Assembly (NCBI GenBank): GCA_963724775.1 | Contig: CAVRWB010000016.1 | Location: 28,815-92,814, forward strand | Origin: an uncultured Acidobacteriota bacterium | GTDB lineage: Bacteria; Acidobacteriota; Vicinamibacteria; Vicinamibacterales; Fen-181 | Length of the DNA: 64,000 nucleotides | Direction of reading: 5' to 3' | Shown: piece after piece, positions 1-64,000 of the stretch | How the letters are laid out: each line of letters begins with the position of its first letter | Position numbering within the stretch: position 1 is the first letter of the stretch | Position numbers and translations under genes: made by a program | Notes under the pieces: model-generated | Databases searched by the model: none | Told to the model about the DNA's origin: nothing | The model's input: only the letters and a program-made list of their open reading frames with translations

Positions 1-76
1 AAGGGCAAGGGGCGCGTATAGAGGCGGTGGGCCGGACCCGGTAGGACAGGCGTCCCGCCTGTCGCGGACGGCGTTC

Positions 77-1489
77 TCAGCTCGCCCGTCGGTCAAGCTC
101 TTTCTGGGCTGCGCCCCTGATCTCGTCGCACGCCACCCGCTCGTCCGGGTCCGGGCGCTGGCCCGGCTCGATCAGCATGACATCGTCGAGCGCGGCCACC
201 GCCTGCAGCGTCTCCGAGGGCAGTTTCGAGCGCAGTTGCCGCACGAGGATCTCGAGCAGATCCGCCGCTCTCCTCGCCTCGTCCAGCGCATCTCGGTCGC
301 CGACGACTCGCAGCGCCAGGCCGCCGTGCCTGGCGGGCTGGCCGGCCAACAGGGGTGCCATGATGGCGGAGGCGACGAGGCGTTCCCCGATCAGGCCGAC
401 AGCTTTGGCAGCCGCCTCACGTGCCGGGTCGCGGTCCCCAAGCGTTCGAACGAGCTCCGAGCTGGCGGCAGACGCCTTCCGGGCGAGCGACTGGACCGCC
501 GCCTCGCGCACGCCGGCGTCCTGATCGGCCAGCAGCGGCGCGAGCGCCGTGACCACGCGTGGATCGTCCAGTGCGCCGAGCGCGTCGGCCGCGCCTCGGC
601 GGGTCGCAGCGTCTCGCTCGGTCAGTGCCACGATGAGCGGTGCCACGGCCTCACCGCCCTGTGCCGCCGCCTCCAGGAACTGGCCATGGAGGACGGCGTG
701 GACGGCGTGCTGCCGTGCGCCGGCCGGGTTCCACTCAAACGATCGGAGGGCCGACGCGGCCGAGGCTTTCACCTCTCGGTCGCCTTCGAGCCGCGCCGCG
801 CACAGCACGTCCACCGCGGCAGCGTTTCTCAGGGCCGCGAGCGATTGAACGGCGGCCTCGCGGACCGGCCGGTCGCGGTCGCCGACTGCGGCGCGAAGCG
901 CCTCGGCCGATGCCGCATCCCCGATGGAGCCGAACGACAGGGCGGCCGCGCGGCGCGTGGCCGGGTCCTTGTGCGACAGCGCGGCGCGGAGAGCGGGAAC
1001 CGCCTGCACGCCGCCCGCGCGGGCCAGTGCTGGCGCCGCCGCCTGCCTGACATTCGACCGGTCGTCGCCGAGAGCGGCGGTCAACGCGGTCACGCTGTCC
1101 GGTCCGCCGACGCCGCCCAGCGCCTCGATCGCCGCCTCTCTCAGGCGCGCGTCCCGGTCGCGCAGTGCCTCGAGGAGCGGGCCGTGGGCGCCGGAGCCCA
1201 CCTGGATCAACCCCGCAACCGCCGCGCGGCGAATCGCGGCCGCCCCCTCCGCATCATGCGCGTCCTCGGCGTGCCGGACGGCATCGAGAAGGAGGGGTGC
1301 GACGGCCGAATCCCCGATCGCTCCGAGCGCGCGAACCGCCGCCTCGCGTACGCTCCACTCCGGATCGTCGAGCAGGGGCCGGATCGTCGGGATGGAAGCC
1401 GTGCGCCCGGGCGTGCCGAGCTTGAGCGCCGCTCGCCGCCGCGTCTCGGCGTCGCGCGATTTCAACTGGAAGGAGGTGAAGAGGCCCAT
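77..1489 (-). CDS. HEAT-repeat (PBS-lyase-like) protein
   Basis: 470-aa uninterrupted ORF. Repeated 'DxxVRxaAxxALGxIG' HEAT/PBS-lyase-like units throughout the translation. Confidence 0.6.
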   Translation of the reverse strand: MGLFTSFQLKSRDAETRRRAALKLGTPGRTASIPTIRPLLDDPEWSVREAAVRALGAIGDSAVAPLLLDAVRHAEDAHDAEGAAAIRRAAVAGLIQVGSGAHGPLLEALRDRDARLREAAIEALGGVGGPDSVTALTAALGDDRSNVRQAAAPALARAGGVQAVPALRAALSHKDPATRRAAALSFGSIGDAASAEALRAAVGDRDRPVREAAVQSLAALRNAAAVDVLCAARLEGDREVKASAASALRSFEWNPAGARQHAVHAVLHGQFLEAAAQGGEAVAPLIVALTERDAATRRGAADALGALDDPRVVTALAPLLADQDAGVREAAVQSLARKASAASSELVRTLGDRDPAREAAAKAVGLIGERLVASAIMAPLLAGQPARHGGLALRVVGDRDALDEARRAADLLEILVRQLRSKLPSETLQAVAALDDVMLIEPGQRPDPDERVACDEIRGAAQKELDRRAS

Positions 1490-1668
1490 CGGTCAATCAT
1501 TCTATCAATGTCCTCTGCGATCTCGGCGTCTCCGCGGTAAACGTCGAGGCTTCGATCGTATCCGGACGAGCAGGCTGGAAATCGTCAAATCACAAAATCG
1601 CGAAATTGCCGAATTCCTGTACAATCCCGGCCATCGCGGGGCGGAGCCCCGCAAGGAGAAGAGGCATC

Positions 1669-3391
1669 ATGCGTTGTCCGGCCGGCTCCTGCATGGCGGG
1701 GGCCATCGTCGTCTCGCTCGGGTTCGCGTGCGTGGCGTGCGGCCCGAGGGTCGAGCCCGCCGATCTCATCCTCACCAACGGCCGCGTCGCGACCGTCGAT
1801 CCGGACAAGCCAGGCGCCGAGGCGATTGCCGTGCGCGGCGACCGGATCGAGGCGGTCGGCACCTCACGCGACATCAAGCCCTACATCGGCCAGAACACCG
1901 AGGTGATCGACCTCGCCGGCCGGTTCGCGATGCCCGGCTTCATCGAGTCGCACGCGCACTTCACCGGCGTCGGCTCCGCGAAGATGCAGCTCGAGCTGAT
2001 GAAGACGCGGACGTGGGACGAGATTGTCGGCATGGTCGCCGACGCCGCCAAGAAGGCGAAGCCGGGCGAGTGGATCGTGGGCCGCGGCTGGCACCAGGAA
2101 AAATGGGAACACAAGCCGCTGCAGACGGTCGAGGGCTTTCCCACGCACGAGTTCCTGAGCCGGGCGGCGCCGGACAACCCCGTCATCCTCACGCATGCCA
2201 GCGGCCACGCGACGATCGCCAACGCGAAGGCGATGGCGCTGGCGGGCATCACCCGCAAGACGCCGAACCCGGCCGGCGGGCAGATCGTCCGTGACGACAA
2301 GGGCAACGCGACCGGCGTCTTCAAGGAAACCGCCTCGGGACTCGTCCGGCAAGGCGTACGCGGAGGCGCGCGCGGCCCGGACGCCCGAGCAGGCGGCCGC
2401 CGACGCCGACCGCGAGGTGGAGCTGGCCGACCGCGAGTTCCTGTCGAAAGGGATCACGACGGTCCACGATGCCGGCGCCAGCCTCGAGACGATCGACCGC
2501 TACAAGCGATTCGCGGAGGGCGGCAAGCTGGGCGTCCGCCTGTACGTGATGATCGAGGAGGACAACGCGACGGATCCTGCCGTCCTGAAGAAGTACCGGA
2601 CGGTCGGCGCCCACAACAACCACCTCACGGTGCGGGCGATCAAGGCCTACATGGACGGCGCGCTCGGTTCCCGCGGCGCCTGGCTCCTGGAGCCCTACGC
2701 CGATCTCCCGTCGAGCACCGGGCTGAACGTGCGGCCGATCGACCAGATCGCGCAGACCGCCCAGCGCGCCATCGAGAACGACTACCAGCTGTGCATCCAC
2801 GCCATTGGCGACCGCGCCAACCGCGAAACGCTCAATCTCTACGAGGCCGCCTTCGCGGCGCACCCCGACAAGAAGGACGTGCGATGGCGCGTCGAGCACG
2901 CGCAGCACATCGCCGCGCCCGACATCGCCCGCTTCGGGCAGCTGGGCGTCATCGCGTCGATGCAGGGGATCCACTGCACGTCGGACGCGCCCTACGTCCT
3001 CGCGCGCCTCGGCCCACAGCGGGCCGAGGAAGGCGCGTACGTCTGGCAGAAGCTGATGAAGAGCGGGGCGGTGGTGGCCAACGGGACGGACGCGCCGGTC
3101 GAGGAAGTCGATCCGCTGCCCGGCTACTACGCGCTCGTCACGCGCAAGCAGAAGAACGGCCAGGTCTTCTACGGCGACCAGCGGATGACGCGCGCCGAGG
3201 CGCTCAAGGCGTACACGCTGAACGGCGCCTACGCGGCATTCGAGGAGGGGCTCAAGGGGCAGCTGAAGGCGGGCCGCCTGGCAGACATCACGGTGCTGTC
3301 GGCCGACATCACGCAGATTCCCGAAGCGGAGATCCAGAAGGCCCAGGTCGCCTACACGATCGTCGGCGGCAAGATCGTCTACGGAAAGTAG
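1669..3391 (+). CDS. Amidohydrolase-3 family metal-dependent hydrolase (YtcJ-like), apparent frameshift near 2340
   Basis: ATG at 1669 preceded by AAGGAG, then a signal-like N-terminus. The HAHF/HASGH motifs lie in the 1606 frame. The C-terminal half (VHDAG...HAIGDRAN...ANGTDAPVE) continues in the 2195..3391 frame, implying a frameshift around 2330-2350. Confidence 0.65.
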
Positions 3392-3435
3392 GGCGGGTCT
3401 TAGACCCGCCGAGGGGCGGACCTTCAGGTCCGCCC
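3392..3435. terminator. Two adjacent GC-rich hairpins between convergent amidohydrolase and truA (bidirectional terminator candidates)
   Basis: GGCGGGTCT-TA-AGACCCGCC at 3392-3410 and GGGGCGGACC-TTCA-GGTCCGCCC at 3413-3435. The truA stop codon sits in the second loop. There is no U-tract, which is typical of high-GC genomes. Confidence 0.4.
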
Positions 3436-4219
3436 ACCCCGCGCCAGCGGCGTGACCGCCCTCAGCGGGGCCTCGCGCGGCTCGCCTTCGTAGACGACGC
3501 GCTCCAGGAACAGGCCGGAAGCCGGTGCGGTCAGCCGTGCCGGCACCGGCGAGGTCCTGCCGGAGGAATCCCGCCACGTCCTCCGGCTCCAACCCGCCGC
3601 GGCCGATTTCCACCAGCACGCCGACGATTCGCCGCACCATCTTCCAGATGAAGTGCGACCCGACCACGCGGACGAGGATCAGGTCGCCCTCTTCGCCCAC
3701 CTGCACGTCGTCCAACAGCACCTTCGTGGAGGACTCGCCGGGATCGCTGTCGCTGAAGGAACGGAAGTCGTGCATCCCGGCAAAGCCCGCCGCGGCCTCG
3801 CGCATCCGGTCGAGGTCGAGGTCCTCCTTCACCCACCACACGAACGGCTTCGCGAACGCGGTGCGGCGGCGCGCCACCTGGTAGAGATAGCTGCGCGACG
3901 CGGCGTCGTGCCGCGCGTGGAACTTGTGACGGACGGCCGCGATGGCGAGGACGTTGATGTCGACGGGGAGGACGTCGTTGATCCGCCGCCGCAGCGTTTC
4001 GGGCGGGAGGTTCGTCGGGATCTCGAGGTGCGCAATCTGCTCGAGCGCGTGGACCCCGGCGTCGGTCCGCCCCGATCCCTGCAGGTCGAAGGCGGGAGAG
4101 CCGCTCGCCTCCTTGATGGCCCGCTGCAACTCGCCCTGCACCGTGCGGGCGTTCTTCTGCACCTGCCAGCCGCTGTAGCGGGTGCCGGCGTATTCAATCG
4201 TCAGCTTGTAGCGAGGCAT
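3424..4219 (-). CDS. truA: tRNA pseudouridine(38-40) synthase TruA (apparent frameshift near C-terminus, about 3540-3580)
   Basis: MPRYKLTIEYAGTRYSGWQVQ...RTDAGVHA is a TruA signature. The conserved C-terminal 'TAPASGLFLERVVY' is in a different frame from the body, ending at TGA 3424-3426. The six-frame ORF track shows an artificially long ORF (2321..4258) because stop codons are rare at this GC content. Confidence 0.75.
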
Positions 4220-6630: not shown

Positions 6631-7565
6631 ATGTCGATCATGCGGAGCGTGCTTCTGGCGGGTGCCGAGAGCGTGTGGTTGCGCGAGCACGCCATGCGGG
6701 CCCCGTTCGTCCGCCGCTCGGTTTCGCGCTTCATGCCGGGCGAGTCGATGGCCGAGGCGCTCGACGCGTGCCGGCGGCAGCAGGCGGAGCGCGGCACTGG
6801 AACGATCCTCACGCACCTCGGCGAGAACCTCGCGTCGATTGCCGAAGCCGGCCAGGTGACCGAGCACTACCTGCAGCTGCTCGACCGCATCCAGGCGGCG
6901 GGACTCGATGCGCAGGTGTCGGTCAAGCTGACGCAGCTGGGACTCGACCTGGGCCCCGACGCCTGCGCGGCAAACCTGCAGACCCTCGTCGATCGCGCCG
7001 AGGCGCGCGGCAACATGATCTGGATCGACATGGAGAGCAGCAAGTACGTCGATCCGACGCTGGCGCTGTTCCGCCGCGTCCGCCAGCGTTCGGCGCGCGA
7101 CCGGCCTGTGCCTCCAGGCGTACCTCCACCGCAGCGCTGCCGATCTCGATTCGCTGCTTGCCGCTGGCGCCCGCTATTCGCCTGGTCAAGGGCGCCTACA
7201 GGGAGCCACCCGAGATCGCGTTCCCCAAGAAGGCGGACGTGGACGAGAACTACTTCCGGCTGGCCGCTCGAATGCTCCAGCCCGACGTGCCACGAGGCAC
7301 CATGCTCGGTGTGGGCACGCACGACGACAGGCTCATCGAGCGGCTGAGGGCCGTCATCGCGGAGCACCACGTTCCCCCCACCGCCTATGAGTTCGAGATG
7401 CTGTACGGCATCCAGCGGCCCCTTCAAGCGCGGCTGGTTCGCGAAGGCGCGCCGCTCCGGGTGCTGATCAGCTACGGCGAGTTCTGGTTCCCGTGGTACA
7501 TGCGGCGGCTGGCCGAGCGGCCCGCCAACGTGCTGTTCGTGGCAAAAAGCATGTTCGGAGGTTGA
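6631..7565 (+). CDS. Proline dehydrogenase (monofunctional PutA-like), two apparent frameshifts (about 7095 and about 7185)
   Basis: ATG at 6631 with a GAGGGAG RBS. N-terminal part is in the 6568 frame and a middle segment (LCLQAYLHRSAADLDSLLAAGAR) in a third frame. The C-terminal part (IRLVKGAYREPPE...GTHDDRLIERLRAV...ISYGEFWFPWYMRRLAERPANVLFV) is in the 6612 frame. Confidence 0.7.
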
Positions 7566-8100: not shown

Positions 8101-9478
<1,378 letters not shown>

Positions 9479-9485
<7 letters not shown>

Positions 9486-13730: not shown

Positions 13731-16700
13731 CTATTCGCGGGGCGGCGCGGCCTGGAAGCCGCCGGGGCGGCGGAGGAAGCCGGCCTCGAGCAGGAAGGGC
13801 GCCATCGGGTGATCCGCCGCTGACCGGCCGTCGATCTCCGCAACGAGCATTCCGTCGCGGTCGCTGCCGCCCGTCGCCAGCCGATACAGTGTCTGCGCAA
13901 CCTCGCGCCCGGTGACGCTCCGCGCCGGCTCGTCCTCGGGCAGGAACGTCAGGAACTGCCGGTCCGCGCGCCCGACGTACGCCGCCAGCATGCCGTTGAC
14001 GATGATGACGCCGGCGCCGACCGAGCGGGTGGGGCCGCGGCCGGACGTGATGGACGAGGCGTGGGGCAGAGCTTCCGCCTCCGCGCGAAGCGCTTCGGCG
14101 CGACCTCGCCGTAGCCTTGGCGAAGGCGGGCCAGCTTTGCCTTCAGGTCTCGGCGACCTGGAAGTCGGCGCGACACCCTGTTCGGCCGACATGGAGGTCG
14201 GCGCGCTGCTTCGCGCCGCCTCGCCCGGCCATCTGAGAATCGCCCCATACGGATTGGCCGGATCCGTCGCCGCCAGGTAGACGGTCTGCGGCGTCTCCGG
14301 TTCGTCGCGTACCGAGCGCAAGAGATCCACGGCCGAGGGGAGCGCGAACTGCGTCGCTCCCAGGCCGCCCACGAAGTAGCCGCGGCGGATCCGCCCCGCC
14401 TCCTCCATCGCCTTCAGCACGTCATACACCGTGCTGAAGCCGCCGGGCAGGTTCTCCACCGCGATTGTCTCCCGCGTGACGATGCCGTGGCGCGTGAGGA
14501 GCTGCGAGGCGACGGCCGCCGCCCACTCGGTGGGGGAGGGATGCGTCCCGACGCGCGCTTCCACGAGGCTCCATCGTCCCTCCGCGGTCGCGGGCGTCAG
14601 GCGGCGCGACCGGAACGGCTGCGTTCGGTCGTGGCGCCGCGAGCGTTTCACTGGCGGCTGCGTGAAGGCGCGCAGCGGGTGGAACGTGTCGTTGGTGACC
14701 AGCCCTCGCCACACCAGGTCCCACAGCGTGTCCACCGTCTCGCGCGGGTAGCCGCCCCCGGCCGCCTGGTGGACGGCGGCGAAGAACGACGCACCCTCGC
14801 GGCGCAGGTGCTGCACGATTCGGGTGGCGCGATCGTCGAGTTCTCCCGCGGCTGCCCGCGGCGGCAGCAGCTTCGCCAGGTGATCGGCCAGGTAGACGGC
14901 GATGCGCCCGTCCCGGTCGCCAAGCGGCTCCACGCCAACCCACGCGATCTCGCCAGCGCTGGTGAGCACGTCCAGGTCGCCCGGCCGGTAGCCGTCGAGG
15001 CGCGACGGCAGGATCTCGCGCTCGAGAAGCGACGCCGGCAGCGGCGCGCCCTGGAGCTGCTCGATGGCATCGAGCAGCGCGTCGAGACCGGATCGTCGGA
15101 CGCCGAGGCCATGCCAGGTCGTCGCGAGGCGGCCCAGCGCAGCCGCGCTCACCGGTTCCACTTCGTGCCGCAGCTTCGCCAGCGAGCGCTGGCGGATCTG
15201 CGCGCAGCACGTCCGCCTCGCACCACTCCCGCCCCACCCGCCCGGGCGTGAACGCGCCCTGCAGCACGCGTCCGCGCGCCGCGAGTTGCGCGAGGGCGCC
15301 AGCGACGGCTCTCGGGGGCAGTCCCAGGCGGGCGGCGACGGCCTCGGTGGGGAACGGCCCGTGCGTCCGCGCGTAGCGCAAGACGAGATCGCCGAGCGGG
15401 ATCGGCAAGCGGTTCGAGGAGCGCATCCGGGAGGCCGAGCGGCAGCGGGGCGCCCAGCGCATCGCGGTACCTGGCGGCATCTTCCACGGCGATGAACCGA
15501 GGCGAACCCGCCACCGGCACCTCGATCGCGCGCCTGTCGGCGACGAGCTCGCGAATCGAGCGTGCGACAATCCCGCTCTCGGAACGCGCGCGAATCTCTT
15601 CCGAATCCAGGTCGCCCAGGCGCAGCAGCATGTCGTGGAGTGCGTCGCGGCTGCGAGCCCGGTAGCGGGGCTCGATCCGCTGCAGCTGCTGTTCCACCTC
15701 GTCGATCACCGCGGGATCCAGCAGCTCCCGCAGTTCCATGTCGCCGAGGAGGTCCTTCAGCTGCGACTGGTCCACCAGCAACGCCTGCGCCCGCCGCTCC
15801 GCGAGCGGCGCGTCGCCGTCGTAGATGAAGTTGGCGGTGTAGGCGAAGAGCAGCGACGAGGCGAACGGCGACGGGGCCTCGGTGTTGATCGTCACCGTTC
15901 GAATCGACCGGCTGCCGACGCGGCCGAGCAGGTCGACGAGCGCCGCCACGTCGAATTGATCCCGAAGGCACTCGCGGTAGGTCTCGAGCAGGGCCGGGAA
16001 CGAGCCGAACCGCGACGCGACGGCCAGCAGGTCGGATGCGCGCTTGCGCTGCTGCCAGAGCGGCGTGCGTGCGCCCGGGCGGCGCCGGGGCAGCAGCAGG
16101 GCGCGGGCGGCCACCTCCCGGAACCGCGCGGCGAACAGCGCGGTGCCACCGAGCTGCCGGAGGAGGAGACGCTCGACCTCCTCGGCAGGCGGCACCAGCA
16201 GCGCGGCGTCCGGCGGCTCGTCGGTGTCCGGGAACCTCACGACAAAGCCATCGTCGGACCACATCGTCTCGACCTCGATGTCGCGCTGCTCCCGGATGCG
16301 GGCCTCCGCGACCATCGCCCACGGTGCCAGGACCTGGCTGCCGTAAGGCGCGAGGACACACACTCGCCAGTCGCCGAGCTCGTCGCGATAGCGCTCGATG
16401 ACGAGCGTCCGATCATCGGGGACCGCCTGGGTGGCCCGCTCCTGGTCGGACAGGTACTGCAGCAGGTTCTCCGCCGCGGTGCGGTCGAGGTCGTGATCCT
16501 TGATCAGCCTGGCGAGCGCTGCGCCGCGCGGCATCCCGCGCAGCTCGCGCACCAGGCGCCCGATCGCCATGCCGAGTTCCAACGGCCGGCCCGGCCGGTC
16601 GCCGTGCCAGAAGGGCATCTTCCCGGGTTCGCCGGGTGCCGGGGACACCGCCACCCGGTCGTGCGTGATCTCCTCGATGCGCCACGTGGACGCGCCGAGC

Positions 16701-18458
16701 ACGAACGTCTCGCCGACCCGCGACTCGAAGACCATCTCCTCGTCCAGCTCGCCCACGCGCGCCGCGCCCTTGGGCGCACCGGCGAGGAACACGCCGTAGA
16801 GACCGCGGTCGGGAATGGTGCCCGCGTTGGCGATGGCCACGCGCCCGGCGCCCTGCCGCGCGGTCAGCGTCCCGCCGATCCGGTCCCAGGTGAGGCGAGG
16901 CCGCAGTTCCGCGAACTCGTCCGACGGGTAACGCCCGGACAGCATGTCGAGGACGCCCTCGAAGATGCCGCGCGAGAGGCTGGCATAGGGCGCGGCGCAG
17001 CGCACGGTGGCGAGGAGGTCGTCCACGCGCCACGGATCGGTCGCGACCGTGGCCACCACCTGCTGCGCGAGCACGTCGAGCGGGTTGCGCGGGTAGCGCG
17101 TCGCCTCGACGAGCCCCTCGTGCATGGCACGGGTGACGGCGGCGCAGGCGACCAGGTCGCCGCGGAATTTCGGGAAGACGACGCCCTCGCTGACCGCGTT
17201 CACCTGGTGGCTGGCGCGGCCGATTCGCTGCATGCCGCTCGCGACCGACGGGGGCGCTTCGATCTGGATGACGAGATCGATGGCGCCCATGTCGATCCCG
17301 AGTTCCAGCGACGAGGTGGCGACGAGCGCCGGGATTCGTCCCGCCTTCAGCGCGTCCTCGATCTCGACGCGTTGCTCGCGCGCCAGCGAGCCGTGGTGCG
17401 CCCGCGCGATCGTCTCGCCCGCCAGCTCGTTCAGGGATGCCGGCCAGGCGCTCCGCGAGGCGCCGGCTGTTCGCGAAGAGCAGCGTGCTCCGGTGAGCGC
17501 GAATCAGGTCGAGCAGGCGCGGGTGGATGCTCGACCAGATCGACGGCGCGGCGGCACCCTGCGCGGCCGGTCCGCTTGGGATCTCGATCGGCTTGGCCAG
17601 CTTCGCCAGGTCCTCGACCGGCACCTCCACCTTCAGCGCCAGCCGCTTGGGCTGCCGTGCGTCGATGACGGCGACGGGCCGGTACTCGATGGCTGGCGCG
17701 TCGGCGGAGAACTCGTCGTGCAGCTCGCCACGGAGGTCGGGCGCGCCCTGGGGTTTCCGCTTGGAGGTGTGGCGCGGACCTTCCGGCTCCTTCTTGACCG
17801 CTCCGCCGAGGAACCGCGCGACTTCGTCGAGCGGCCGCTGCGTGGCAGACAGGCCGATGCGCTGAAGCGTTCGCGGGCAGACGGCCTGCAGCCGCTCGAG
17901 CGACAGCGCGAGATGCGCGCCGCGCTTGGTGGGCACCAGCGCGTGGATCTCGTCCACGATGACCGTCTCGACCGAGCGAAGCACCTCGCGGGCCCGGGAC
18001 GAGAGCAGGAGGTAGAGCGACTCGGGAGTCGTGATGAGGATGTCGGCCGGCTCGCGCAAAAACCGCGCGCGTTCGGCGGACGGCGTGTCGCCCGTGCGGA
18101 CCGAGACGGCGGGTGGCGTGAACGACTCGCCCCGCGTTTGCGCGAGATTGGCGATGCCTGCGATGGGGGATCGCAGGTTCCGCTCGACGTCCACCGCGAG
18201 CGCCTTCAGCGGCGACACGTAGAGGACCCGGCACCGCGCGGAGCGCTCGGGCAGCGGTGAGAACATCACCCGGTTGACCGCCCACAGGAAGGCCGCGAGC
18301 GTCTTCCCGCTGCCGGTCGGCGACAGGATGAGCGTGGACTCCCCCCGCGCAATCGCCGGCCAGCCGAGCGCCTGCGGGGTCGTGGGCTCGCCGAACGAGG
18401 CGGCAAACCACTGCGCCACGGCGGGGTGGAACAGGCTCAGCGGGGACGGACGGGGCAT
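13731..18458 (-). CDS. lhr: Lhr-type large ATP-dependent helicase (DEAD/DEAH + Lhr C-terminal domains), at least 3-4 apparent frameshifts
   Basis: N-terminal LILSPTGSGKTLAAFL (motif I) and VIVDEIHAL (motif II). The middle contains MGAIDLVIQIEAPPSVASGMQRIGRASH (motifs V/VI). The winged-helix and Lhr C-terminal domains are spread over the 16413, 15149, 14422 and 13731 frames; one shift is near 17445 (LAERLAG|LNELAGE). Confidence 0.8.
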
Positions 18459-18474
18459 GGGGAATTCTATGATG

Positions 18475-18570
18475 GGATTGACGATTGACGATTGACGAGT
18501 GGCGATTGACGAGTGTGACGGCGACCGTCCCGAATTCGTCAATCATCAGTCGGCAATCGTCATTTGCCGA
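18475..18570. repeat. (GATTGACGA)n-type heptamer/nonamer tandem repeat plus a related TCGTCAATC...GGCAATCGTCATTTGCC segment between the lhr start and the upstream gene
   Basis: gattgacgattgacgattgacgagtggcgattgacgagtgtgacgg. Confidence 0.6.
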
Positions 18571-18971
18571 TCTGCTGATCCCCCGCACTCCGTACACGTC
18601 CCGTCCTCGAACATCCGTTCCGGCGCCGTGGGCCGGCCGCACTGCACGCAGGGCGTGTAGGTGGCGCGGCGCGAATCGCGGGCAGCGCGGATGAGGGCGT
18701 TGAGGCTGGCGAGGGCGTGAATCTCCGGCATGCGGCGCCATTGGACGCTGCCGAACAGGATCGGCCGGACGGACAGGTCGTTGGGTCCGTCCCACTCGAC
18801 GGCGTATTCCGACACCGAGGCCATCGAGCGCGTGAGCCGAACGACGACTTCGCCCGGGTCGCCGCCGACGAGGACCACGGACCCGTCGCGTACTGGCTCC
18901 TCGACAACCGGCTGCGGCAGCTCGTGCCTCACCGAGGTCAGGAGCGCTTCCCACTCGAGCCTGTCGGCCAT
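18546..18971 (-). CDS. Hypothetical protein with C-terminal CxxC...CxxC zinc-ribbon, immediately upstream of lhr
   Basis: ORF with the C-terminus TPCVQCGRPTAPERMFEDGTCTECGG. No recognisable family. Confidence 0.35.
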   Translation of the reverse strand: MADRLEWEALLTSVRHELPQPVVEEPVRDGSVVLVGGDPGEVVVRLTRSMASVSEYAVEWDGPNDLSVRPILFGSVQWRRMPEIHALASLNALIRAARDSRRATYTPCVQCGRPTAPERMFEDGTCTECGGSADRQMTIAD

Positions 18972-18984
18972 GTCGGAATTCTAG

Positions 18985-19067
<83 letters not shown>

Positions 19068-19095
19068 GGGCAAGCTGGCGACCTTTCTTGACCGT

Positions 19096-19800
19096 TTGGC
19101 TCCAAGTAGGCGATTATTCCGGGCCATGCCGATTGAGGTCTCCCGCTTCACCGCCGTCTTGATGGACCAGGTGCAGCTTGCCGCGCTCGCCTTCATGGCG
19201 GTCGTCTACGTCGTCAAGGTCCGGTGGATCCTCGGTTTCCGTGCCAGCGTCGAGCGGACGCCCGCGCGCGGCAGCCACGCGAAGGGGATCGGCTATGCCT
19301 ACGCCACCCTGGCCATGCCGTGGGATGTCCCCAGCACCCGGGTGCACTGGTTCCGCTGGGTGGAGTTCGTCGTCTTCCACGTGGCGGTGGCCGCGGCCAT
19401 CGTCCTCACCTTCGTCATGCCCTACTGGCCGGGCGCGGTCGGCGGGCCGGTGACCGTCGCCGCCCTGCAAACGCTCTTCGCTCTCGGTGCCGCGGTCGCC
19501 GTATCGCGCCTGGTCCGCCGGTTCACACGACCGGAGATGAGGCTGATCACCACGCCCGACGATCTCTTTTCGCTCGTCATGCTCGCCGCGTGGCTCGCCG
19601 CCGGCGTTCTCGCCGCCCCGCAGCGCAGCGAGGCCGCGCTCGTCGCATTCTTCGGGCTGACGGCGTTCTTCCTCGTCTACGTGCCCTTCTCGAAGATCTC
19701 GCACTACATCTACTACCCGTTCATCCGTTATTACATCGGCAAGCACTTCGGCCATCGAGGCTCGTACCCGCCATCCCGCGCGGCGCGCCAGGCCTCATGA
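19096..19800 (+). CDS. NarI-like di-heme membrane subunit (HdrE/DsrM family)
   Basis: About 5 predicted TM helices and a size of about 230 aa. His pairs sit in TM2 (HWFRWVEFVVFH) and in the last helix (SHYIYYPFIRYYIGKHFGH). It lies directly upstream of a CCG-domain Fe-S protein. Confidence 0.5.
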   Translation: MAPSRRLFRAMPIEVSRFTAVLMDQVQLAALAFMAVVYVVKVRWILGFRASVERTPARGSHAKGIGYAYATLAMPWDVPSTRVHWFRWVEFVVFHVAVAAAIVLTFVMPYWPGAVGGPVTVAALQTLFALGAAVAVSRLVRRFTRPEMRLITTPDDLFSLVMLAAWLAAGVLAAPQRSEAALVAFFGLTAFFLVYVPFSKISHYIYYPFIRYYIGKHFGHRGSYPPSRAARQAS

Positions 19801-19846
19801 GAGCGGCCATTCTCATTCGCGCCCTCGCTTCCAGGACAGGACGACC

Positions 19847-21235: not shown

Positions 21236-21252
21236 GCCGTAAGCCCTGAGCC

Positions 21253-22047: not shown

Positions 22048-22084
22048 AGCGATCTCACGAGGATATACCGCAGCAGGCGCAGAG

Positions 22085-22272
22085 ACAGGCGGGACGCCTG
22101 TCCTACGGCCTGCCGCACCGCTGAACAGGCGGCGAGACGCCTGTCCTACGGCCTACCGCACCGACAGGCGAGACGCCTGTCCTACGGCCTACGCCGACAG
22201 GCGACCCTGCCACCGACAGGCGAGACGCCTGTCCTACGGCCTGCCGCACCGACAGGCGGGACGCCTGTCCTA
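22085..22272. repeat. Five to six tandem copies of an about 37-bp unit GACAGGCGRGACGCCTGTCCTACGGCCTRCCGCACC, each with a 7-bp-stem hairpin; no unique spacers
   Basis: Read directly from the sequence. The last copy overlaps the stop codon of the SEDS-PBP gene. Confidence 0.75.
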
Positions 22273-25647: not shown

Positions 25648-25735
25648 CGAATGTCCTGGGTCAATCCGGTAGGCAGGAGTGCAGTGGGTGCAAGCGGTGC
25701 AGAGAAGCGCCGGGCTACGACGTGCCTACTGTCTG

Positions 25736-27877: not shown

Positions 27878-27921
27878 GGGAAGAAGGGCTCAGGGCCTCA
27901 AGGCTTACGGCTTCCACACCT

Positions 27922-46884: not shown

Positions 46885-49365
46885 CTACATCGGCTCGCCT
46901 CGCAGCGCGATCACCGGGTCGACCCTCGCCGCGCGACGCGCCGGCAGGTAGCTCGCGAGCAGCGCGATCGATCCGAGGCCGAACGCCGCGACAGCGTAGG
47001 TGAGCGGGTCGAGTGCGCCGACGCCGAAGAGCAGCGTGGACATCAGCCGGGTGAGGCCGGCCGCCGCGGCGAGTCCGAGCACGACCCCGGCGACCGTCAG
47101 CACGAGCCCGTGTCGCACGAAGAGGCGGCTCACGTCGGACACCTGCGCGCCGAGCGCCACACGGATGCCAATTTCTCTCGTGCGCTGCGCGGCGATGTAG
47201 GCGATCACGCCGTAGATGCCGACGATGCCGAGCAGCAGCGCGACGCCGGCCGCCATCGCGAGCATCACCAGCGTGAACGACGTCTGCGCCATCGATTCCG
47301 CGCGGAGCTCCTCGAGCGACCGGACTTCCGCCAGCGGGAGGCTGGGATTCACCGACCAGACCGCCTGCTGGATCTCCTTCAGGAACGTCGGCGATCCCAT
47401 TCGCGCGCTGCGGATCGCGTAGGCCACCGTCCGCCGCGTCGTGAGGCCCTTCTCCCAGAAGTCCTCCATCAGCAGCGGCCAGTAGATCACTTTCGGCGCG
47501 GGGCGGCCGACGCCATCGTCGCGCTCGTCGGCGACGACGCCGACGATCTCGCGCCAGGCGCTGTCCGGCCCCTGGCGGATGCGCTTGCCGACCGCCGCGG
47601 CCGGCGAGGCGAAATACTCCCGGGCGAAGTTCTCGCTGACGACGGCGACCTTCGCCAGGTTGAAGCTGTCGGCCCATGTGATTGTGCGGCCCGCCAGCAG
47701 CCGGTTGCCCATCGTCTCCGTGTAGCCGGGGCCGACGAACTTGAAGCGGCGGATGGGCGGGATGCGGCCGGGCGGGCCCGGGCGCTCCTCCACGAAGATC
47801 GGGTCGTTGCTGTCGTGACCGTCCATCGTGATGGCCGAGGACAGGCCGACCGACGCCACGCCGGGGACGTGCGCGATGCGCTGCGCGATCTGCTCGTGCA
47901 TCCGCGCGCTCGCGTCGTTCTCCTTGACGAGCGCCTCGGGGATGGTGACGCGCAGGGTCAGCACCTCCTCCGGCCTCGTGAACCCGGGCTGCACCTGCCG
48001 CATCGCCTGGAAGGTGCGGATCATCAGCCCCGAGCCGATCAGCAGGACGACCGCCAGGGCGACCTCGGCGATCACGAGCGCGCTGCGCGCGCGGTGGCGT
48101 TCGCGGCCGTCGCTCGAGCCGCGGCCGCCTTCCTTGAGCGCGGACGCCAGCCGCGGGCGCGCGAAGCGCAGCACGGGAATGAGGCCGAAGAGGACACCCG
48201 CGAGGAGCGAGATGCCCAGCGTGAAGGCCAGCACGACGGGGTCGATGCCGATCTCCTCCAGGCGCGGCAGGTCCTTCGGCCCGATTGCCGCGAGCAGGCG
48301 GATGCCGGCCGCGGCGAGCCCGAGGCCGGCGAGACCGCCGAGGAGGCCGAGGGCGAGGCTCTCGGACAGCAGTTCGGAGGCCAGCCGCCCCCAGCTCGCG
48401 CCGAGCGCCGAGCGGATGGCCAGCTCCTGCTGTCGCCCCTCGGCGCGCACGAGAAAGAGGTTGGCGACGTTGGCGCAGGCGATGAGCAGCACGATGCCGA
48501 CGGTGCCCACGAGGACCCAGAGCATCGGGCGGACGTCGCCGACGAGGTCGTCGGCGAACGGCCGGACGAGTGGTCCCATGCGGATCTCCTCGAACATCTT
48601 CCGCGTGAACCCGGGCGGCAGCGGGAAGCGCTCCATCGACCAGCGGGAGCATCCGCGCGATGTCGCGCGTTGGCCTGCGCGATCGTGACGCCGGGCTTGA
48701 GGCGGGCGACGGCCTGGTAGCTGAAGTTGCCGACGAACATCTCCGCGCGGTTGAAGCGGAACGGCAGGAGCAGCGCCGGCTTCTGGTTGAGGAAGCGGAA
48801 CTCGGCCGGCAGCACGCCGATGATCTCGTTCGGCTTGCCCTCGACCGATCAGCGTCTGGCCGACGACGTCGCGGGCTGCCGCCGAACTGCTGCTGCCAGT
48901 AGCCGTGCGTCAGCATCACCCGCTCGGGGCTGCCGCGGCGAGTCGTCCTCGGCCGTGAACCGGCGGCCGAGGATCGGCTGCACGCGCAGGGCGGGCAGCG
49001 TGGAGTCGGTCACCATCAGCGCCTCGACCTTCTCGGGCTCGCCGCGGCCGGTGACCGAGACCGAGCCGTTGTCCCACAGGCCGAGCTGCTCGAAGACGCG
49101 GTTCTCCTCGCGGTAGGTGAGGTAGGTCGCCGGCCACTGGTTCAGCAGCGGGATGTTCAGGCCCGGGCGCCGTGTGCCACAAGCCCACCAGCCGCTCGGG
49201 CTGATCGAACGGCAGCGGCTTGAGCAGCACCGCGTAGACGACGCTGAAGATCGCGGTGTTGGCGCCGATGCCGACCGCGAGCGTGATGATGGCGACGGTG
49301 GTGAACAGCGGCGCGCGCAGCAGAGCGTGCGTGACGCGTCGGAACCTGGAGAGGAAAGGCGGCAT
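46885..49365 (-). CDS. ADOP-family duplicated FtsX/MacB-type ABC transporter permease; apparent frameshifts
   Basis: Two FtsX permease modules, each preceded by a MacB-like periplasmic domain. Ends ...[16 protein letters not shown]. No ATPase gene is adjacent. Confidence 0.75.
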
Positions 49366-56751: not shown

Positions 56752-56782
56752 CGCCGGGTTATAACATACCCGGGGCCGCGGC

Positions 56783-59069
56783 TCAGTTCACGTTTTCCAT
56801 GACTCGCTTGACGGTGCTGCGCAGCGCGTCGACGTCGATCGGTTTCGGCACGTGTGCCTGGAATCCGGCGGCGAGCGCCGACAGGCGATCCTGCTCGCGC
56901 GCGTAGGCCGTGACCGCGATGGCAGGCACCGCCCGCACGACGCCGGACGCGTGCCGCCGCACGTCCTGCATCAGGCTGTATCCGTCGGTGCCCGGCATGC
57001 CGATGTCGGCCAGCAGCACGTCGACCTTCTTCTCGCCGAGGATCACCATCGCCTCTGCCGCGGACGCCGCCGTCTCGACCTCGGCCCCGCTCGCGATCAG
57101 TACCTGCGCGATCATCTCGCGCGCGTCCGCGTCGTCGTCCACCACCAGTGCGCGCATCCCCGCGAGCTCGCGGCCGGCGACGCTCGTCCGGCGGCGTCTC
57201 TCGACGGGAGCCGCGGCGTTCGCCACGTCGGCCGTGCGCAGCGGCAGCGTGACGACGAAGACCGACCCGTGTCCCTGGCCCCCGCTCTCGGCGCGCACCG
57301 TGCCGCCGTGCGCCTCGACCAGCTGCCGGACGATCGCCAGGCCGAGGCCCATGCCCCCGTGCGTCCGGGTCGTCGAGCTGTCGTGCTGGCGGAAGCGCTC
57401 GAAGACGTGCGGCAGGAAGGCCGGATCGATTCCCATGCCGGTGTCAGACACGCGGATGACGGCATCCGGACCCAGCCGTGCGAGGCTCACCGCCACGCGC
57501 CCCCCCGACGGCGTGAACTTGATGGCGTTCGAGAGGAGGTTCCAGGCGACCTGCTGCAAGCGGTCGGGATCGCCGAGCACCGGCGGGTTCGCGTCCAGGC
57601 GGGCCTCGAGCTCGATGCCCTTTGCGTCGGCGGCGGGCCGCACGGCGTCCACGGCGGCCTTGATGGGAGGGGCGAGCCCCGTTTCCCTCATCTCGATCGA
57701 CATCTTGCCCGAGACGATGCGTGACACGTCGAGCAGATCCTCGAATCAAGTCCGCCTGCGTCCGCGCGCTGCGGGCGATCACGTCGAGGGCGCGAGCCCG
57801 CTGCTGTTCGTTGAGGCGGCCGCTGCGGAGCATCGTTGCCCAGCCGAGGATGGCGTTGAGCGGTGTCCGCAGTTCGTGTGAGAGCGTCGCCAGGAAATCG
57901 TCCTTGGCACGGTTGGCGGCCGCCGCCTCGGCGTGGGCGCGCCGCTCCGCATCCACGAGGTCGCGCAGCCGCGCTTCGCTGCCGCGCAGGGCCTCTTCCG
58001 ATCGGCGCAGCTGCTCCGCGGCCGATTCCGCCTCGGCCAGCGCGCGAACCTCGTCGTAGGTCGCCCACGTGAGGCCGATCGTCACCAACACGCCGAGGCC
58101 CAGGAGCCACGGCAGCAGCGCCGTCTCCGTGGCGTGTTCGAACTGCGGGAGGCTGTTGACAGCGATCAGCCAGGGCTCGCCGGCGACGACGATCGACCGG
58201 GTCTCCGCCAGGTGTGGTGTCGCACCGGCCCATGCATCGATCGGGTGCGACTCGTACAAGAGTCGTCCCGCCTCCGCCGCCTTGCCGTCGTACACGGAGA
58301 GCGACACTTCAGGGGAACCGATGTCGTTGAAGACGGCCGACAGGAAATCCCCGGCACGGAACGGGCTGTAGACGAAGCCGGCCACGCCGGGCAGGCCGCC
58401 GGCGCCCGCCGCGTTCTCGAACACCGGGACGTAGATGAGGAATCCCGCCTGTTTCTGCGGGTCGATCTCCTGGACGAGCGTCACCCGCCCGCTGGCGGCC
58501 GCGGTGCGCGTCGTCGCGGCCGCGAGCATGGCGGCGCGCCTCACGGGTTCGGCAAACATGTCGTAGCCGATCGCGGCCAGGTTCCGCCGGTCCTCGGGCT
58601 GGAGGTAGAGGATCGGGTAGTAGTCCTCGCGCGGGTCCTCGGGCCACACCCGGAAGGTCGGGTGAACGTGCGCGCGGACGTCGCGCAGGAACGCGTCGAG
58701 CCGCTCCGCCGGGACGTGGACCGCGAAGCCGAGCCCTTGCATCCCCGGATAGCGGCCGCGGAGGTCCAGCCGGCTGGCGAACTGGCGGAACTGCTCGGCG
58801 CTGACCTCGTTGCCGTTCGCCTCGAACAGCCCCGCGCCGGCTCGCATGAGTGCCACGTAGGTGTCCACGCGGCCGTTGATTCCGGCGACGGTGCCGTCGA
58901 CGACGTTCTGGAAGCGGACCTGGTCCTTTGCCCGGCCGGTGCGCGCGGCGTAGAAGCCGGCGGTGCCGGTGGCGGCGAGGCCGAAGAAAAGTACCCAGAT
59001 TGGGACGGTCCAACGCCAGGAGGCGAGCCAGCGGAGGGAGGAGCGTGCGGACATGAGCGCGACGTCCAT
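56783..59069 (-). CDS. Hybrid sensor histidine kinase with periplasmic CHASE-like domain and C-terminal receiver; apparent frameshift near 57720
   Basis: H-box DDFLATLSHELRTPLNAI. HATPase region (NLLSNAIKFT...DTGMGI...GGMGLGL). Receiver domain (LVVDDDAD...DVLLADIGMPG...KP). Confidence 0.75.
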
Positions 59070-59205
59070 CGTAGCACTGCCGTGACGGACTCGAAACCTC
59101 GACCGTTTGACCTTCGGACCGATCGTGTCTAGCATGCTGCTTCCCGGTTGCTCCTCGCGAGGCGAACGCGACGGGCGCGGGCCGCGGGCATCGAAAGGAC
59201 TTCTG

Positions 59206-60738: not shown

Positions 60739-63266
60739 CGTTCTCGGCGCCACGGCCGTAAGCCATAGCCGTCGCCCGAGGCTTCAGGTGAGGGTCGGCC
60801 TATTCCTCGCGAAGCGCCGTGAGCGGGTCCACCCGCGATGCCTGCCAGGCGGGCAGGCTGGCCGCCCCGGCCACGACGATGGCGACCAGGGCCGTGGCCC
60901 ACGCGTAGCTCGTCGCGTCGAGCGCGCGGATGGCGGGCAGCCACGCAGCCAAGACGTTCGTCATGGCAGCCGAGAGGATCACTCCTACCCCGATCCCGAT
61001 CACCGCCAGCCAGCCGGCTCGCGCGACGACCAGCCGGAACAGGCTCCGCGGGTCGGCCCCGAGAGCCAGCCGCAGGCCGAACTCCGAGAGACGCTGCGAG
61101 GCGATGTACGCCATCACGCCGTAGACGCCAGCGAGGGCGAGCAGCAGCGCGAGCCCCGCGAAGAGGCCGACGAGCGAGGCGAGGAATCGTTGCGTGGCGA
61201 TCGTCGCTGAGACCATCCGCTCGAGCGTCGTGAAACGCAAGGCGGTGGCCGGGTCGAGCCGGCGCATGTGCTCGCGGACCGCCGGGACGATGGTTTCGGG
61301 TTCGACGGCCGTTCGAACCACCACGTGCACCTCGTTGGCGTAGTACGGGTGCTGCTGCAGCGGCATGTAGATCTCGGGCGATGGCGGGGACGCCGGCGAG
61401 TTCTGGCGGACGTCGCCCACCACGCCGACAATCGTCATCCAGGTGTCCGGAGCGTCGAGTCCGCATCGGATGCGTCGGCCGATCGGGTTCTCTCCCGCGA
61501 AATCGCGGTTCACCAGCGCGCGGCTGACGATGGCGACATAGGGGGCGTCGTAGGTGTCTGCGTCCGTGAAGTCGCGGCCGCCGAGCAGCGCGACGCCGAG
61601 CGCCGCGAAGTAGCCCGGGCTGGCCAGCCGGAATCCCGCGTCCGGCATGGCGCGGCCGGCACCGGTCTCCGGGCGGCCTTCTATGGTGAATCCACCATTC
61701 GATCCGTAGGGGCCGGAGGGGAGGCCCATCGCCACGCCGACCGCACGAACGCCGGGCACCGGCGTCAACTCCGGCGACAGCCGCGCGAGCGCCCGGGCAA
61801 CCGCCACGTAATCGGCCTTGGTGCGCGCCGGCACGTGGGCGGTGGCGACGAGGACCGACTCTGGCCGATAGCCGAGATCCGTTTCCGTCAGCGCGATGAA
61901 GCCCCTCAGCAGGACGGCCGCTCCGGCCGCCAGGACGAACGACAGGGCGATCTCTGCGACGACGAGCGCGCCGCGGAGACGGTTGGACTGGCCGACGACG
62001 CCGCGAGCCGAGGACTGTTTGAGGGCGTCGTTGAGGTTGACGCGCGACGCGTGCCACGCGGGCACAAGGCCGAACAGGAGGCTGGCCGCCAGCGAGCAGG
62101 CGAGCGCGAAGAGGAGCACCCGCCAGTCGACGGCCACCTCCGCGAGCCGCGGGACGTCGGCCGGCGCGAGCCGGGTGAGCGCGGGCGTGCCGGCGTAGGC
62201 GAGCGCGAGGCCGAGGCCGCCGCCGGCGAGCGAAAGCAGGAGGCTTTCTGCGACGAGTTGGCGGCCGATGCGAGAACGGCTGGCGCCGAGCGCCGCGCGC
62301 AGGCCGATCTCCCGGCCGCGCGTCGCCGCGCGGGCGAGCAGGAGGTTCGCGACGTTGGCGCAGGCGATGAGCAGGACGAGGGAAACGGCAGCCAGCAGCA
62401 CGACGAGCGTGAGGCGCGCGCGAGAGACGATGCGATCGCGGAGGGGCATGACCGTGAAGGTGCGGGCCCGGTTGCTCTCGGAAAAGGCCGCCGCCAGCCT
62501 CGACCCGAGGGCCGTGGCGACGGCCTGCGCCCGTTCGAGGGAGACCCCGTCGCGCAGCCGTGCGACCGCCTGGAAGTTGAAGGCCGTCCGGTTCATGGCG
62601 ATCCGGGGCAGCGGCGAGGGCATCGCGAGCCAGACGTCCGTGGCGCGCGGCGGGTCGAAGCCCCGTGGCATCACGCCGACGATCTGGTACTGCTGATCCT
62701 CGACGCTCACCGCCTGACCGATCGCCAGGCGCGCGCCGCCGAACACGCGCTGCCGCGAAGCCGTCGCCGACAATCGCCGCCCGCTCGCCGTCTTGGGCGC
62801 CGAGCAGGCGGCCGGCGGTCGGCGGCACGCCGAAGACCTCGAAGAACGACGGGGCGACGAAGTAGACGGAGGCGAACTCGCCGGCGCCGCGGACCTGCAC
62901 GCCGATGGCGCCGCCCCAAAACGGAGACAACGACGCGAACGTCTCGCGCTGCGCGGAGACGTCGAGGAAGTCGCCGCCAGTCAGGCGCGGCGTTTCGCGG
63001 CCCGTTTCCGTCGAGCGGGTGCCGAGCGACACGATCCGGTCCGGCTGAGGGTAGGCGAGCGGCTGGAGCAGCACGCCGTTGACGACGCTGAAGACCGCGG
63101 TGGTGGCGCCGATGCCGAGCGCGAGCGTGAGGACGGCAACGGCGGAGAAGGTGCGATGGCGGCGGAAGACGCGAAGCGCGTACCTGGCGTCGCGGACGAG
63201 ATCCTGCACGGGCCGCACGCGGCTCACGTGTCGGCTCACGCCGCTGACCTGCTCGACGCCGCCCAT
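60735..63266 (-). CDS. ADOP-family duplicated FtsX/MacB-type ABC transporter permease (second copy); apparent frameshifts
   Basis: Duplicated FtsX plus MacB-periplasmic domain architecture, as in 46885-49365. Ends ASRVDPLTALREE. Confidence 0.7.
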   Translation of the reverse strand: MGGVEQVSGVSRHVSRVRPVQDLVRDARYALRVFRRHRTFSAVAVLTLALGIGATTAVFSVVNGVLLQPLAYPQPDRIVSLGTRSTETGRETPRLTGGDFLDVSAQRETFASLSPFWGGAIGVQVRGAGEFASVYFVAPSFFEVFGVPPTAGRLLGAQDGERAAIVGDGFAAARVRRRAPGDRSGGERRGSAVPDRRRDATGLRPAARHGRLARDALAAAPDRHEPDGLQLPGGRTAARRGLPRTGAGRRHGPRVEAGGGLFREQPGPHLHGHAPPRSHRLSRAPHARRAAGCRFPRPAHRLRQRREPPARPRGDARPGDRPARGARRQPFSHRPPTRRRKPPAFARRRRPRPRARLRRHARAHPARAGRRPAARGGGRRLAGAPLRARLLAGGQPPVRPCARVARVARQPQRRPQTVLGSRRRRPVQPSPRRARRRRDRPVVRPGGRSGRPAEGLHRADGNGSRLSARVGPRRHRPRAGAHQGRLRGGCPGARAAVAGVDAGARRSCGRRGDGPPLRPLRIEWWIHHRRPPGDRCRPRHAGRGIPAGQPGLLRGARRRAARRPRLHGRRHLRRPLCRHRQPRAGEPRFRGREPDRPTHPMRTRRSGHLDDDCRRGGRRPPELAGVPAIARDLHAAAAAPVLRQRGARGGSNGRRTRNHRPGGPRAHAPARPGHRLAFHDARADGLSDDRHATIPRLARRPLRGARAAARPRWRLRRDGVHRLAASLGVRPAAGSRGRPAEPVPAGRRASRLAGGDRDRGRSDPLGCHDERLGCVAARHPRARRDELRVGHGPGRHRRGRGGQPARLAGIAGGPAHGASRGIGRPSPEASGDGYGLRPWRRER

Positions 63267-63299
63267 CGCGATCCACTCCTCGAGTCTGGGGGCAAACTA

Positions 63300-63395
63300 C
63301 AGGTTTGCCGGTTCACTCCAGCAAGTGGATCGGCAAGGCTCTCGGCGTTGCCGGTTCACTCCAGCAAGTGTGGGGCAAAGCTCCAGCTTTGCCGA
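63300..63395. repeat. Two direct copies of TTGCCGGTTCACTCCAGCAAGTG followed by the palindrome GGCAAAGCTCCAGCTTTGCC
   Basis: Read directly from the sequence. It is the same palindrome core as at 6598-6615 and 7581-7598. Confidence 0.6.
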
Positions 63396-63421
63396 TCTCC
63401 GCCTGCAAGCCTGAGCCACCG

Positions 63422-63968
63422 CTACTTCACGGCCTTGATCACGCCGCAACCGACGCGCCCGCCGGCATTCCCGGTCGGCTGCGTCTGGAAGTCGTCCACC
63501 TTCTCGTGGACGACGACGGCATGCCCGATGACGTCCGACGCGGGCGGCCCGCCGATCGTCCAGAGGTCCGTGCTGAAGGTGAAGCGTGGCCTCCCCGGAC
63601 GCATTCGCTTCGAGATTGCCGATGTCGCCGTGATGGAAGGCCGCTTCGCCCCAGCGGCCGTGCGCCTCGTTCGAGGGATTCCAGTGACCACCGGCAGACT
63701 TCGCCTCGGGGTCGCTGCAGTCTCCCTTCTCGTGAAGATGGATGGCGTGCAGCCCGGGCGTCAGCCCGGTGGCCTTGACGGTCATGGTGACTTTGCCTGC
63801 CGCCGCCGAGAAGGTCGCCTCGCCGCTGACCGTGCTGCCGCTTCGGGCCTCGATGGTCGCGGCGGCGCGGGTGGCGGTCGTTGGGGTGGCTGCCTGCCGG
63901 GCGGCGAGGCTGGCGCCGACAGCGGCGACGAGCGCCGCGATTGGGAGCATGCGAGTCGTGAGTGTCAT
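63422..63968 (-). CDS. sodC: Cu/Zn superoxide dismutase (SodC) with signal peptide; apparent frameshift near 63600
   Basis: HAIHLHEKGDCS...GGHWNP...HHGDIGN is in one frame. The C-terminal VVVHEKVDDFQTQPTGNAGGRVGCGVI is in another. Confidence 0.75.
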
Positions 63969-64000
63969 GAACTGAGCTTGCCCCGGCCCGGGCCCGGCGT

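Follow-up and report, generated by a model that had tools for sequence, protein, structure and literature searches.

Do the many frameshifted genes in a stretch of an uncultured Acidobacteriota genome (Vicinamibacterales, Fen-181; assembly GCA_963724775.1, contig CAVRWB010000016.1, positions 28,815 to 92,814 of the forward strand; below, the window, 64,000 nucleotides (nt) in length) belong to the organism or to its assembly? A first-pass annotation, made from the letters alone, had described nearly all long genes here as broken by indels, preferred assembly error to pseudogenes, and proposed a comparison with orthologous sequences. The comparison made here supports that preference: with a probability of approximately 0.93, the frameshifts reflect errors in the consensus of a long-read metagenome assembly, which would carry one base too many at about 34 places. 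The organism, probably a high-GC, Vicinamibacteria-like member of the Acidobacteriota judging from the source names of homologues and from the ADOP family, almost certainly has the affected genes intact, and the broken genes are a matter of data quality, not a biological feature. The extra bases are absent from independent assemblies, intact orthologues exist in short contigs with clean reading frames, and repair restores the genes.

The window has approximately 70% G+C over its entire length, hence, long stop-free open reading frames (ORFs) occur in all six frames, and ORF length alone is uninformative. A codon-usage model was trained on long confident ORFs from the window and applied in a Viterbi pass with six coding frames and a non-coding state; Pfam scans were run on the stop-free pieces to test whether the frame switches cut single domains. 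The segmentation yields 41 same-strand changes of coding frame without a non-coding gap. Eight of them are ordinary gene boundaries, with the stop codon of the upstream gene at the junction; no stop codon is present at the other 33. Of these, 29 are +1; the remaining four comprise one noise switch and three that each break down into a pair of +1 insertions. With all of the approximately 33 events taken as +1, the sign test against equal frequencies of +1 and -1 gives p ~2e-10, and every lesion is a +1 shift from one extra base. Two pairs of switches were dropped in curation, one (14082/14148) as noise inside one ORF and the other (18484/18600) as falling in a non-coding repeat upstream of lhr. 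With the three "+2" switches counted as two insertions each, and the site in the sigma-54 activator added, curation leaves about 34 events (0.53 per kb). This is half of the "roughly one indel per kb" estimated initially; the lesions are strongly clustered, and the "indels" narrow to single-base insertions only.

Several assemblies are available for comparison. Two ENA contigs, ERZ25039513 contig_53940 (170 kb; L001) and ERZ25039545 contig_39327 (225 kb; L002), have an exact-protein match to hom of the window; both show the same gene order as the window and 94–97% identity over 1–20.7 kb. The window and these two contigs are referred to below as the three long-read assemblies. A further piece of contig_53940 (L086) spans 21.3–42.1 kb of the window and is highly fragmented, as is the contig of a third ENA assembly, ERZ25039512 (L087). 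Two contigs of the NCBI metagenome-assembled genome (MAG) GCA_024640805.1, L003 and L084, are 91–96% identical to the window over 36.9–44.0 and 43.8–54.2 kb, respectively, and a JGI contig (L085) is ~81% identical. We call these last three contigs short-read-style, a label that rests on their short length and clean frames, not on sequencing records. The ENA records have names of the "contig_N" style, which is a lead only: a Flye-plus-Medaka pipeline in a Nanopore-only soil study, where MAGs were inspected for Nanopore-associated errors, yields records of the contig_N type (PMC12313526). No link between the ENA accessions ERZ25039512, ERZ25039513, and ERZ25039545 and that study was found, and none of the papers searched mentions these accessions; an origin in the Microflora Danica long-read project would likewise be a guess from the contig names.

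As a control, the same segmentation was applied to the short-read-style contigs. It finds no switches in their 22.5 kb of coding sequence, where about 13 would be expected at the window rate, vs. 33 in the 58 kb of window coding sequence; the frame switches in the window are not chance. Per kilobase of coding sequence, the window has 0.57 switches, L087 has 0.60, and L001, L002, and L086 have 2.2–2.6 (values of 2.61, 2.50, and 2.22).

Independent assemblies (L001, L002, L086, L003, or L084) lack most of the extra bases, 27 of the 34 being missing in one assembly or more. The ENA contigs L001 and L002 are without 11 of the 13 extra bases in 1–20.7 kb of the window and carry frame changes of their own elsewhere; the contigs of GCA_024640805.1 lack all nine insertions of 37–50 kb. 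To polarise the indels of the three long-read assemblies, we relied on the reading frame and Pfam continuity, after abandoning a majority rule. The two ENA contigs share errors, and therefore many seemingly window-unique deletions are in fact insertions in these contigs.

The pattern of breakage differs between the assemblies. In one of the ENA contigs, Lhr is an ORF of 1126 amino acids (aa) and the esterase an ORF of 610 aa, with cysK and the gene of a HEAT protein broken; in the other, cysK is whole in the gene calls, and Lhr and the esterase are broken. In the window, cysK is intact, vs. three insertions in each of L001 and L002. At the positions matching 6132 and 6191 of the window, the two contigs have identical extra bases, and the third insertion of each lies within ~90 nt; the frame is restored after the three insertions, but the conserved SGNTG stretch turns into out-of-frame residues. 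As the cysK case demonstrates, the same error turns up in more than one assembly of this data set.

All 13 genes initially named as broken indeed are: in each, the domains or homologue matches are spread over different reading frames of the same strand. The amidohydrolase (1669..3391, plus strand) has one extra base at 2349, which neither L001 nor L002 has and which only the window carries in the three-way alignment; it divides the Amidohydro_3 profile into 1–155 in frame +0 and 127–472 in frame +1. The truA pseudouridine synthase gene (3424..4219, minus strand) has one extra base in a CC pair at ~3546–3547, common to L001 and L002, that cuts the second PseudoU_synth_1 domain at 85 of 108. In the proline dehydrogenase gene (6631..7565, plus strand), the extra base at 7098 is private to the window and absent from both ENA contigs, and the second falls in a CCC run at ~7170–7172; Pro_dh 7–105 and 145–277 are in different frames. 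An earlier placement of the second insertion at 7200 was rejected, as the difference there is a deletion in L001, and three-frame translation leads to the CCC run. The gene metY (8154..9482, minus strand), encoding an O-acetylhomoserine sulfhydrylase-type pyridoxal phosphate enzyme, has six extra bases (8386, 8528, 8571, 8949, 9063, and 9093), all absent from L001 and L002, and its Cys_Met_Meta_PP domain is found as five Pfam pieces over three frames. The large helicase gene lhr (13731..18465, minus strand) has three extra bases seen against the ENA contigs, of which 15396 and 17437 are absent from both and ~15201 from one; the DEAD domain, Helicase_C–WH2, WH3–WH4, and a short fourth piece are in frames -2, -1, -0, and -2.

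In the middle part of the window, the flotillin/SPFH (YqiK-like) region (30824..33048, minus strand) changes frame about eight times. Seven of the changes are extra bases that L086 lacks (~31105, 31645, 32089, 32225, 32577, 32690, and 32824), which coincide with the Viterbi switches, and the eighth change is at ~32306; Band_7 is detected in one piece only, and homologues match three frames. The sigma-54-dependent activator (33135..34527, plus strand) has one +1 shift near 33330 (an approximate position) in its N-terminal, receiver-like region, which runs in frame +2 and then +0. Its AAA+/lid/helix–turn–helix core is in one frame, and a 376-aa relative is matched in a single high-scoring segment pair; Response_reg was not detected in this protein by Pfam, and "receiver-like" is a reading of the translation. 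The glycyl-radical enzyme gene of the PFL2-3 family (37672..40073, plus strand) has an extra A at 38567 and an extra G at 39742, both absent from L003 and from L086. PFL-like 11–286, PFL-like 286–647, and Gly_radical are in three frames here, and tblastn with a 799-aa orthologue (94–96% identical) matches the same number of frames; in L003, the enzyme is a single intact ORF of 799 aa. The gene of the M28 peptidase with a PA domain (42810..45258, minus strand) has an extra G at 43986, absent from L084, where a partial M28 ORF of 472 aa crosses this site in one frame; in the window, the Peptidase_M28 profile is split into 1–81 and 79–191.

ADOP family duplicated permease 1 (46885..49365, minus strand) has six extra bases (48637, 48666, 48848, 48871, 48935, and 49158), all absent from L084. 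The gene is split in the window by Pfam and has intact 824-aa orthologues in L084 and L085; the orthologue scores 858.6 bits with TIGR03434, at a cut-off of 622.3. The remaining three genes have one +1 shift each. In the hybrid histidine kinase with a CHASE domain (56783..59135, minus strand), the shift at ~57700–57745 lies between HisKA and HATPase_c, with CHASE and HisKA (1–55 of 66) in frame -2 and HATPase_c and Response_reg in frame -1. In ADOP permease 2 (60800..63266, minus strand), it is near 62750, with MacB_PCD 1–139 in frame -2 and the remainder in frame -1; TIGR03434 matches 153–803 in one frame with 674 bits. In the Cu/Zn superoxide dismutase gene sodC (63422..63968, minus strand), it is near 63585, and Sod_Cu 1–88 and 81–133 are in different frames. 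The genes initially considered intact, that is, hom and the genes of the esterase-like protein, ATP-dependent DNA ligase, PrpE, and the SEDS–PBP (penicillin-binding protein) fusion, are all intact.

Once 26 single bases are deleted, 12 genes read through without interruption, and their ~8,300 codons include no internal stop. The repaired lengths are typical for the families: Lhr has 1602 codons after the removal of three bases, the two ADOP permeases have 835 and 831, and the glycyl-radical enzyme has 810; the histidine kinase, minus one base, is a stop-free frame of 809 codons. Domains that were divided become single stretches, namely, Amidohydro_3 1–472 of 472 (358 bits), Cys_Met_Meta_PP 2–374 of 381 in MetY (434.5 bits), and Pro_dh 7–277 of 278; Sod_Cu in sodC (one base removed) extends over 1–133 of 133 (134 bits), and the second PseudoU_synth_1 domain of truA over 1–108 of 108. 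The repaired glycyl-radical enzyme aligns with L003 over all 799 aa (95.6% identity, no gaps), the repaired ADOP permease 1 with L084 over all 824 aa in one frame (90.3% identity, no gaps), and the N-terminal 472 aa of the repaired M28 peptidase with L084 at 96.8% identity, again without gaps.

Comparison of repaired genes with the short-read-style references also shows selection on the encoded proteins. In the glycyl-radical enzyme, 95 of 138 substitutions are at third positions, and in ADOP permease 1, 226 of 309; the ratios of codons with only synonymous changes to those with non-synonymous ones are 93:35 and 190:80, respectively. In both genes, these ratios are alike before, between, and after the shift sites. 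The synonymous excess persists past the shifts, hence, the out-of-frame parts have not evolved as untranslated DNA.

Several observations weigh against consensus error as the source of the extra bases. Homopolymers, which the first-pass annotation had proposed to check as the location of the shifts, are not where they occur: at the 27 analysed sites, the run length at the extra base is 1 in 20 cases (no identical neighbor), 2 in four, and 3 in three, and no run is of 4 or longer. The genome-wide baseline is 58% of bases at run length 1, so that homopolymers are no commoner at the extra bases than at random positions. (One of the 27 entries, 7200, was later moved to the CCC run at ~7170, which leaves the picture unchanged.) Nanopore consensus tends towards deletions, and an exclusively insertional bias is unusual. 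The shifts in truA (~3546, CC) and proline dehydrogenase (~7170, CCC) are present in all three long-read assemblies, and neither position is spanned by an accurate reference. Five sites have no informative reference: for 57.7, 62.75, and 63.6 kb there is none, and for ~32306 and ~33330 only the very noisy L086. Finally, the link between indels and strain diversity described below could partly be an effect of the alignment.

Can the extra bases, then, be real? The first-pass annotation had kept real decay in a reduced genome as a fallback, that is, genuine large-scale pseudogenisation with real mutations in a decaying, e.g., host-associated or reduced, genome. The number of affected genes, housekeeping ones included, would fit this explanation, as would the two sites common to three assemblies and the fact that the lesions truly are in the deposited sequence; pseudogene-rich reductive genomes, such as those of Mycobacterium leprae and recently host-restricted symbionts, likewise have many long genes interrupted. 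Real decay, however, brings frameshifts of both signs, nonsense codons, deletions, insertion elements, and relaxed constraint, whereas the window has a single lesion type (+1), no nonsense codon or large deletion in the repaired codons, kept synteny, and purifying selection that is not relaxed downstream of the shifts. In addition, 27 of the 34 lesions are private to the window assembly and absent from relatives that are 91–97% identical; the sister long-read assemblies are broken more, and elsewhere, and the short-read-style contigs are clean. The clusters of six insertions within 0.5–0.7 kb add up to a multiple of three, so that the remainder of the gene stays in frame, which would be pointless as decay. 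For the 27 sites that can be compared with a reference, pseudogenisation is effectively excluded, and as an account of the window it is very improbable. Programmed +1 ribosomal frameshifting, or recoding, at least at the shared sites in truA and proline dehydrogenase, would explain why all shifts are +1, as in bacterial prfB. The sequence at both shared sites is identical in the three long-read assemblies though the flanking haplotypes differ, and downstream of both, most substitutions among the assemblies affect the third codon position when read in the shifted frame (for truA, 10 of 18 and 7 of 11). Hence, the TruA and proline dehydrogenase proteins are made across the shared sites in living cells. 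Unlike in prfB, however, the shifts that have a reference are absent from close orthologues, and there are up to six shifts per gene; no slippery sequence, in-frame stop, or common motif was seen at the shift sites, the contexts of which are heterogeneous. The 27 sites absent from close relatives cannot be conserved recoding signals, identical errors do recur, as in cysK of the two ENA contigs (intact in the window), and we know of no recoding precedent for either truA or proline dehydrogenase. Recoding as a general explanation is thus highly unlikely, and it would be no less surprising if the two shared sites were real lineage features decoded in this way; the simplest reading of them is a recurrent context-dependent error.

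If the extra bases are consensus errors, they may arise when noisy reads are combined into a consensus or used to polish it, and would be worst where co-occurring strains differ and fewer concordant reads are available per position. Errors of this origin would lead to clustering, a tie to local diversity, and error-free blocks where the assemblies are identical. The events are indeed clustered: the variance-to-mean ratio in 2-kb bins is 3.2, a value reached by none of 20,000 permutations, with six events in metY, about eight in the flotillin-like gene, and six in ADOP permease 1 (zones 8.3–9.1, 30.8–32.9, and 48.6–49.2 kb). In the three-way alignment, the densities of 1–2 nt indels and of substitutions between the three assemblies are correlated (Spearman 0.75, p = 8e-8), and all assemblies are free of indels in the five 500-nt windows where fewer than five columns vary. 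Consensus quality thus appears to drop where co-occurring strains differ, and the few sites recurring in several assemblies point to an additional context-dependent (systematic) component. The same artefact could also have another cause, namely, random read errors that remained because coverage was low or polishing was missing, independently of any mixture of strains. For this possibility speak the near-random contexts, with no homopolymer link, any of the four bases inserted, and a flanking CG dinucleotide weakly over-represented (13 of 27 vs. a baseline of 0.28, p = 0.02), and also the mismatches, which show no excess within 5 nt of the nine insertions that were placed by alignment with short-read-style references; hence, the notion that insertions lie beside strain single-nucleotide polymorphisms at the base level was rejected. 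Random errors would not, however, cluster this strongly, avoid the blocks identical across assemblies, or recur at identical positions in different assemblies, so that a purely random origin seems doubtful, though a good deal less so than either decay or recoding.

As consensus errors, the lesions are similar to the indel-fragmented ORFs of long-read (Nanopore or PacBio continuous long read) assemblies, where single-base indels break conserved genes, the breaks differ between assemblies, short-read assemblies are clean, and removal of the indels restores full-length proteins. They differ from the classical artefact of this type, which is deletion-biased and concentrated in homopolymers: here, only insertions are seen, mostly with no identical neighbor, and they are denser where local strain diversity is higher. 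Nearly all of these errors would escape a frameshift corrector or quality filter that considers homopolymers only. As had been stated initially, the calls of coding sequences are approximate, with about a quarter of the genes, most long ones included, broken by one to eight apparently spurious bases. The same holds for domain architectures and for "pseudogene," "truncated," or "split" proteins from the window and, probably, from the whole contig; findings that rest on truncation, fission, overlapping ORFs, or odd starts and stops here should be re-read against the list of sites. If the error density follows strain diversity, the most variable genes of the population would be the worst reconstructed.

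The frame changes leave two long stretches clean. The longest, 13.7 kb (17438..31100), contains full-length single-frame genes by the Viterbi segmentation and Pfam, and the second, 8.6 kb (49159–57700), is seen in the Viterbi segmentation. In the first, the minus-strand region 21253–30606 encodes, without a shift, an FHA protein, a FhaA-like FHA protein, a PP2C phosphatase, a Ser/Thr kinase, and the SEDS–PBP ORF, the latter a single ORF of 1125 aa with SEDS (FtsW/RodA) fused to a penicillin-binding transpeptidase domain. In the short-read-style contigs, M48 peptidase and PrpE are each encoded by one ORF.

The identity between the window and the ENA contigs is a mosaic: 1-kb blocks at 9.9–10.9 and 12.8–13.8 kb are identical in all three long-read assemblies, the block at 18.7–19.7 kb is near-identical to L002 only, and 14.8–18.7 kb is 10–12% divergent from L002. 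This could reflect recombination among co-existing strains or a chimeric consensus across strains. With PrpE as a query against genome contigs, the best match among the matches listed has 75% identity, and none of the matches listed is a close relative. Exact-protein look-ups with window:29704-30606 and window:54724-56751 gave no match, and the JGI metagenome contigs gave no exact match to a query with the 38567 insertion or to a block identical in three assemblies. Two differences between assemblies are larger: the DUF481 gene (45355–46193; Pfam E = 4e-35), between the M28 peptidase and ADOP permease 1, is absent from the collinear L084 and L085, making this locus a strain-specific insertion or deletion of ~840 bp; and the spacer between metY and the cupredoxin gene (8133–8202) is 70 nt in the window vs. 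~508 nt in both ENA contigs.

Among the window ORFs scanned with Pfam, no gene of a glycyl-radical activating enzyme turned up; downstream of the glycyl-radical enzyme, an ORF of a PEP-CTERM protein is present (40074–40814). In another ORF (53722–54660), collagen-like Gly-X-Y repeats occur together with an IPT/TIG domain. No tRNA or transfer-messenger RNA (tmRNA) genes were found in the window, and no Rfam family reached the gathering score.

The intergenic regions contain multiple tandem arrays of 7-nt units, including GCGTCAA, CAACGGT, GAACGGA/GAACTGA, GATTGAC, GCAGTGG (12 copies), and AGAACGT, and one 8-nt unit, CAAATCGC. The gaps with these arrays are 8101–8179, 13633–13672, 18476–18512, 18987–19072, 34513–34564, 37613–37664, 41557–41671, and 42783–42809. 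Families of heptamer repeats are described in other phyla, and the arrays of the window may resemble them. Their copy number differs from that in L003, with gaps of 24, 13, and 28 nt at 37629, 41593, and 41638, respectively. Inverted arrays of a longer unit flank the esterase-like gene (10843–12603): upstream, the 9-nt unit AGTCAACGG is present in 9.8 copies (10782–10869), and downstream, its reverse complement TTGACTCCG is present in 20 copies (12613–12794). The "Collagen" Pfam match at 12606–12935 on the minus strand was rejected as spurious, being a translated 9-nt tandem repeat.

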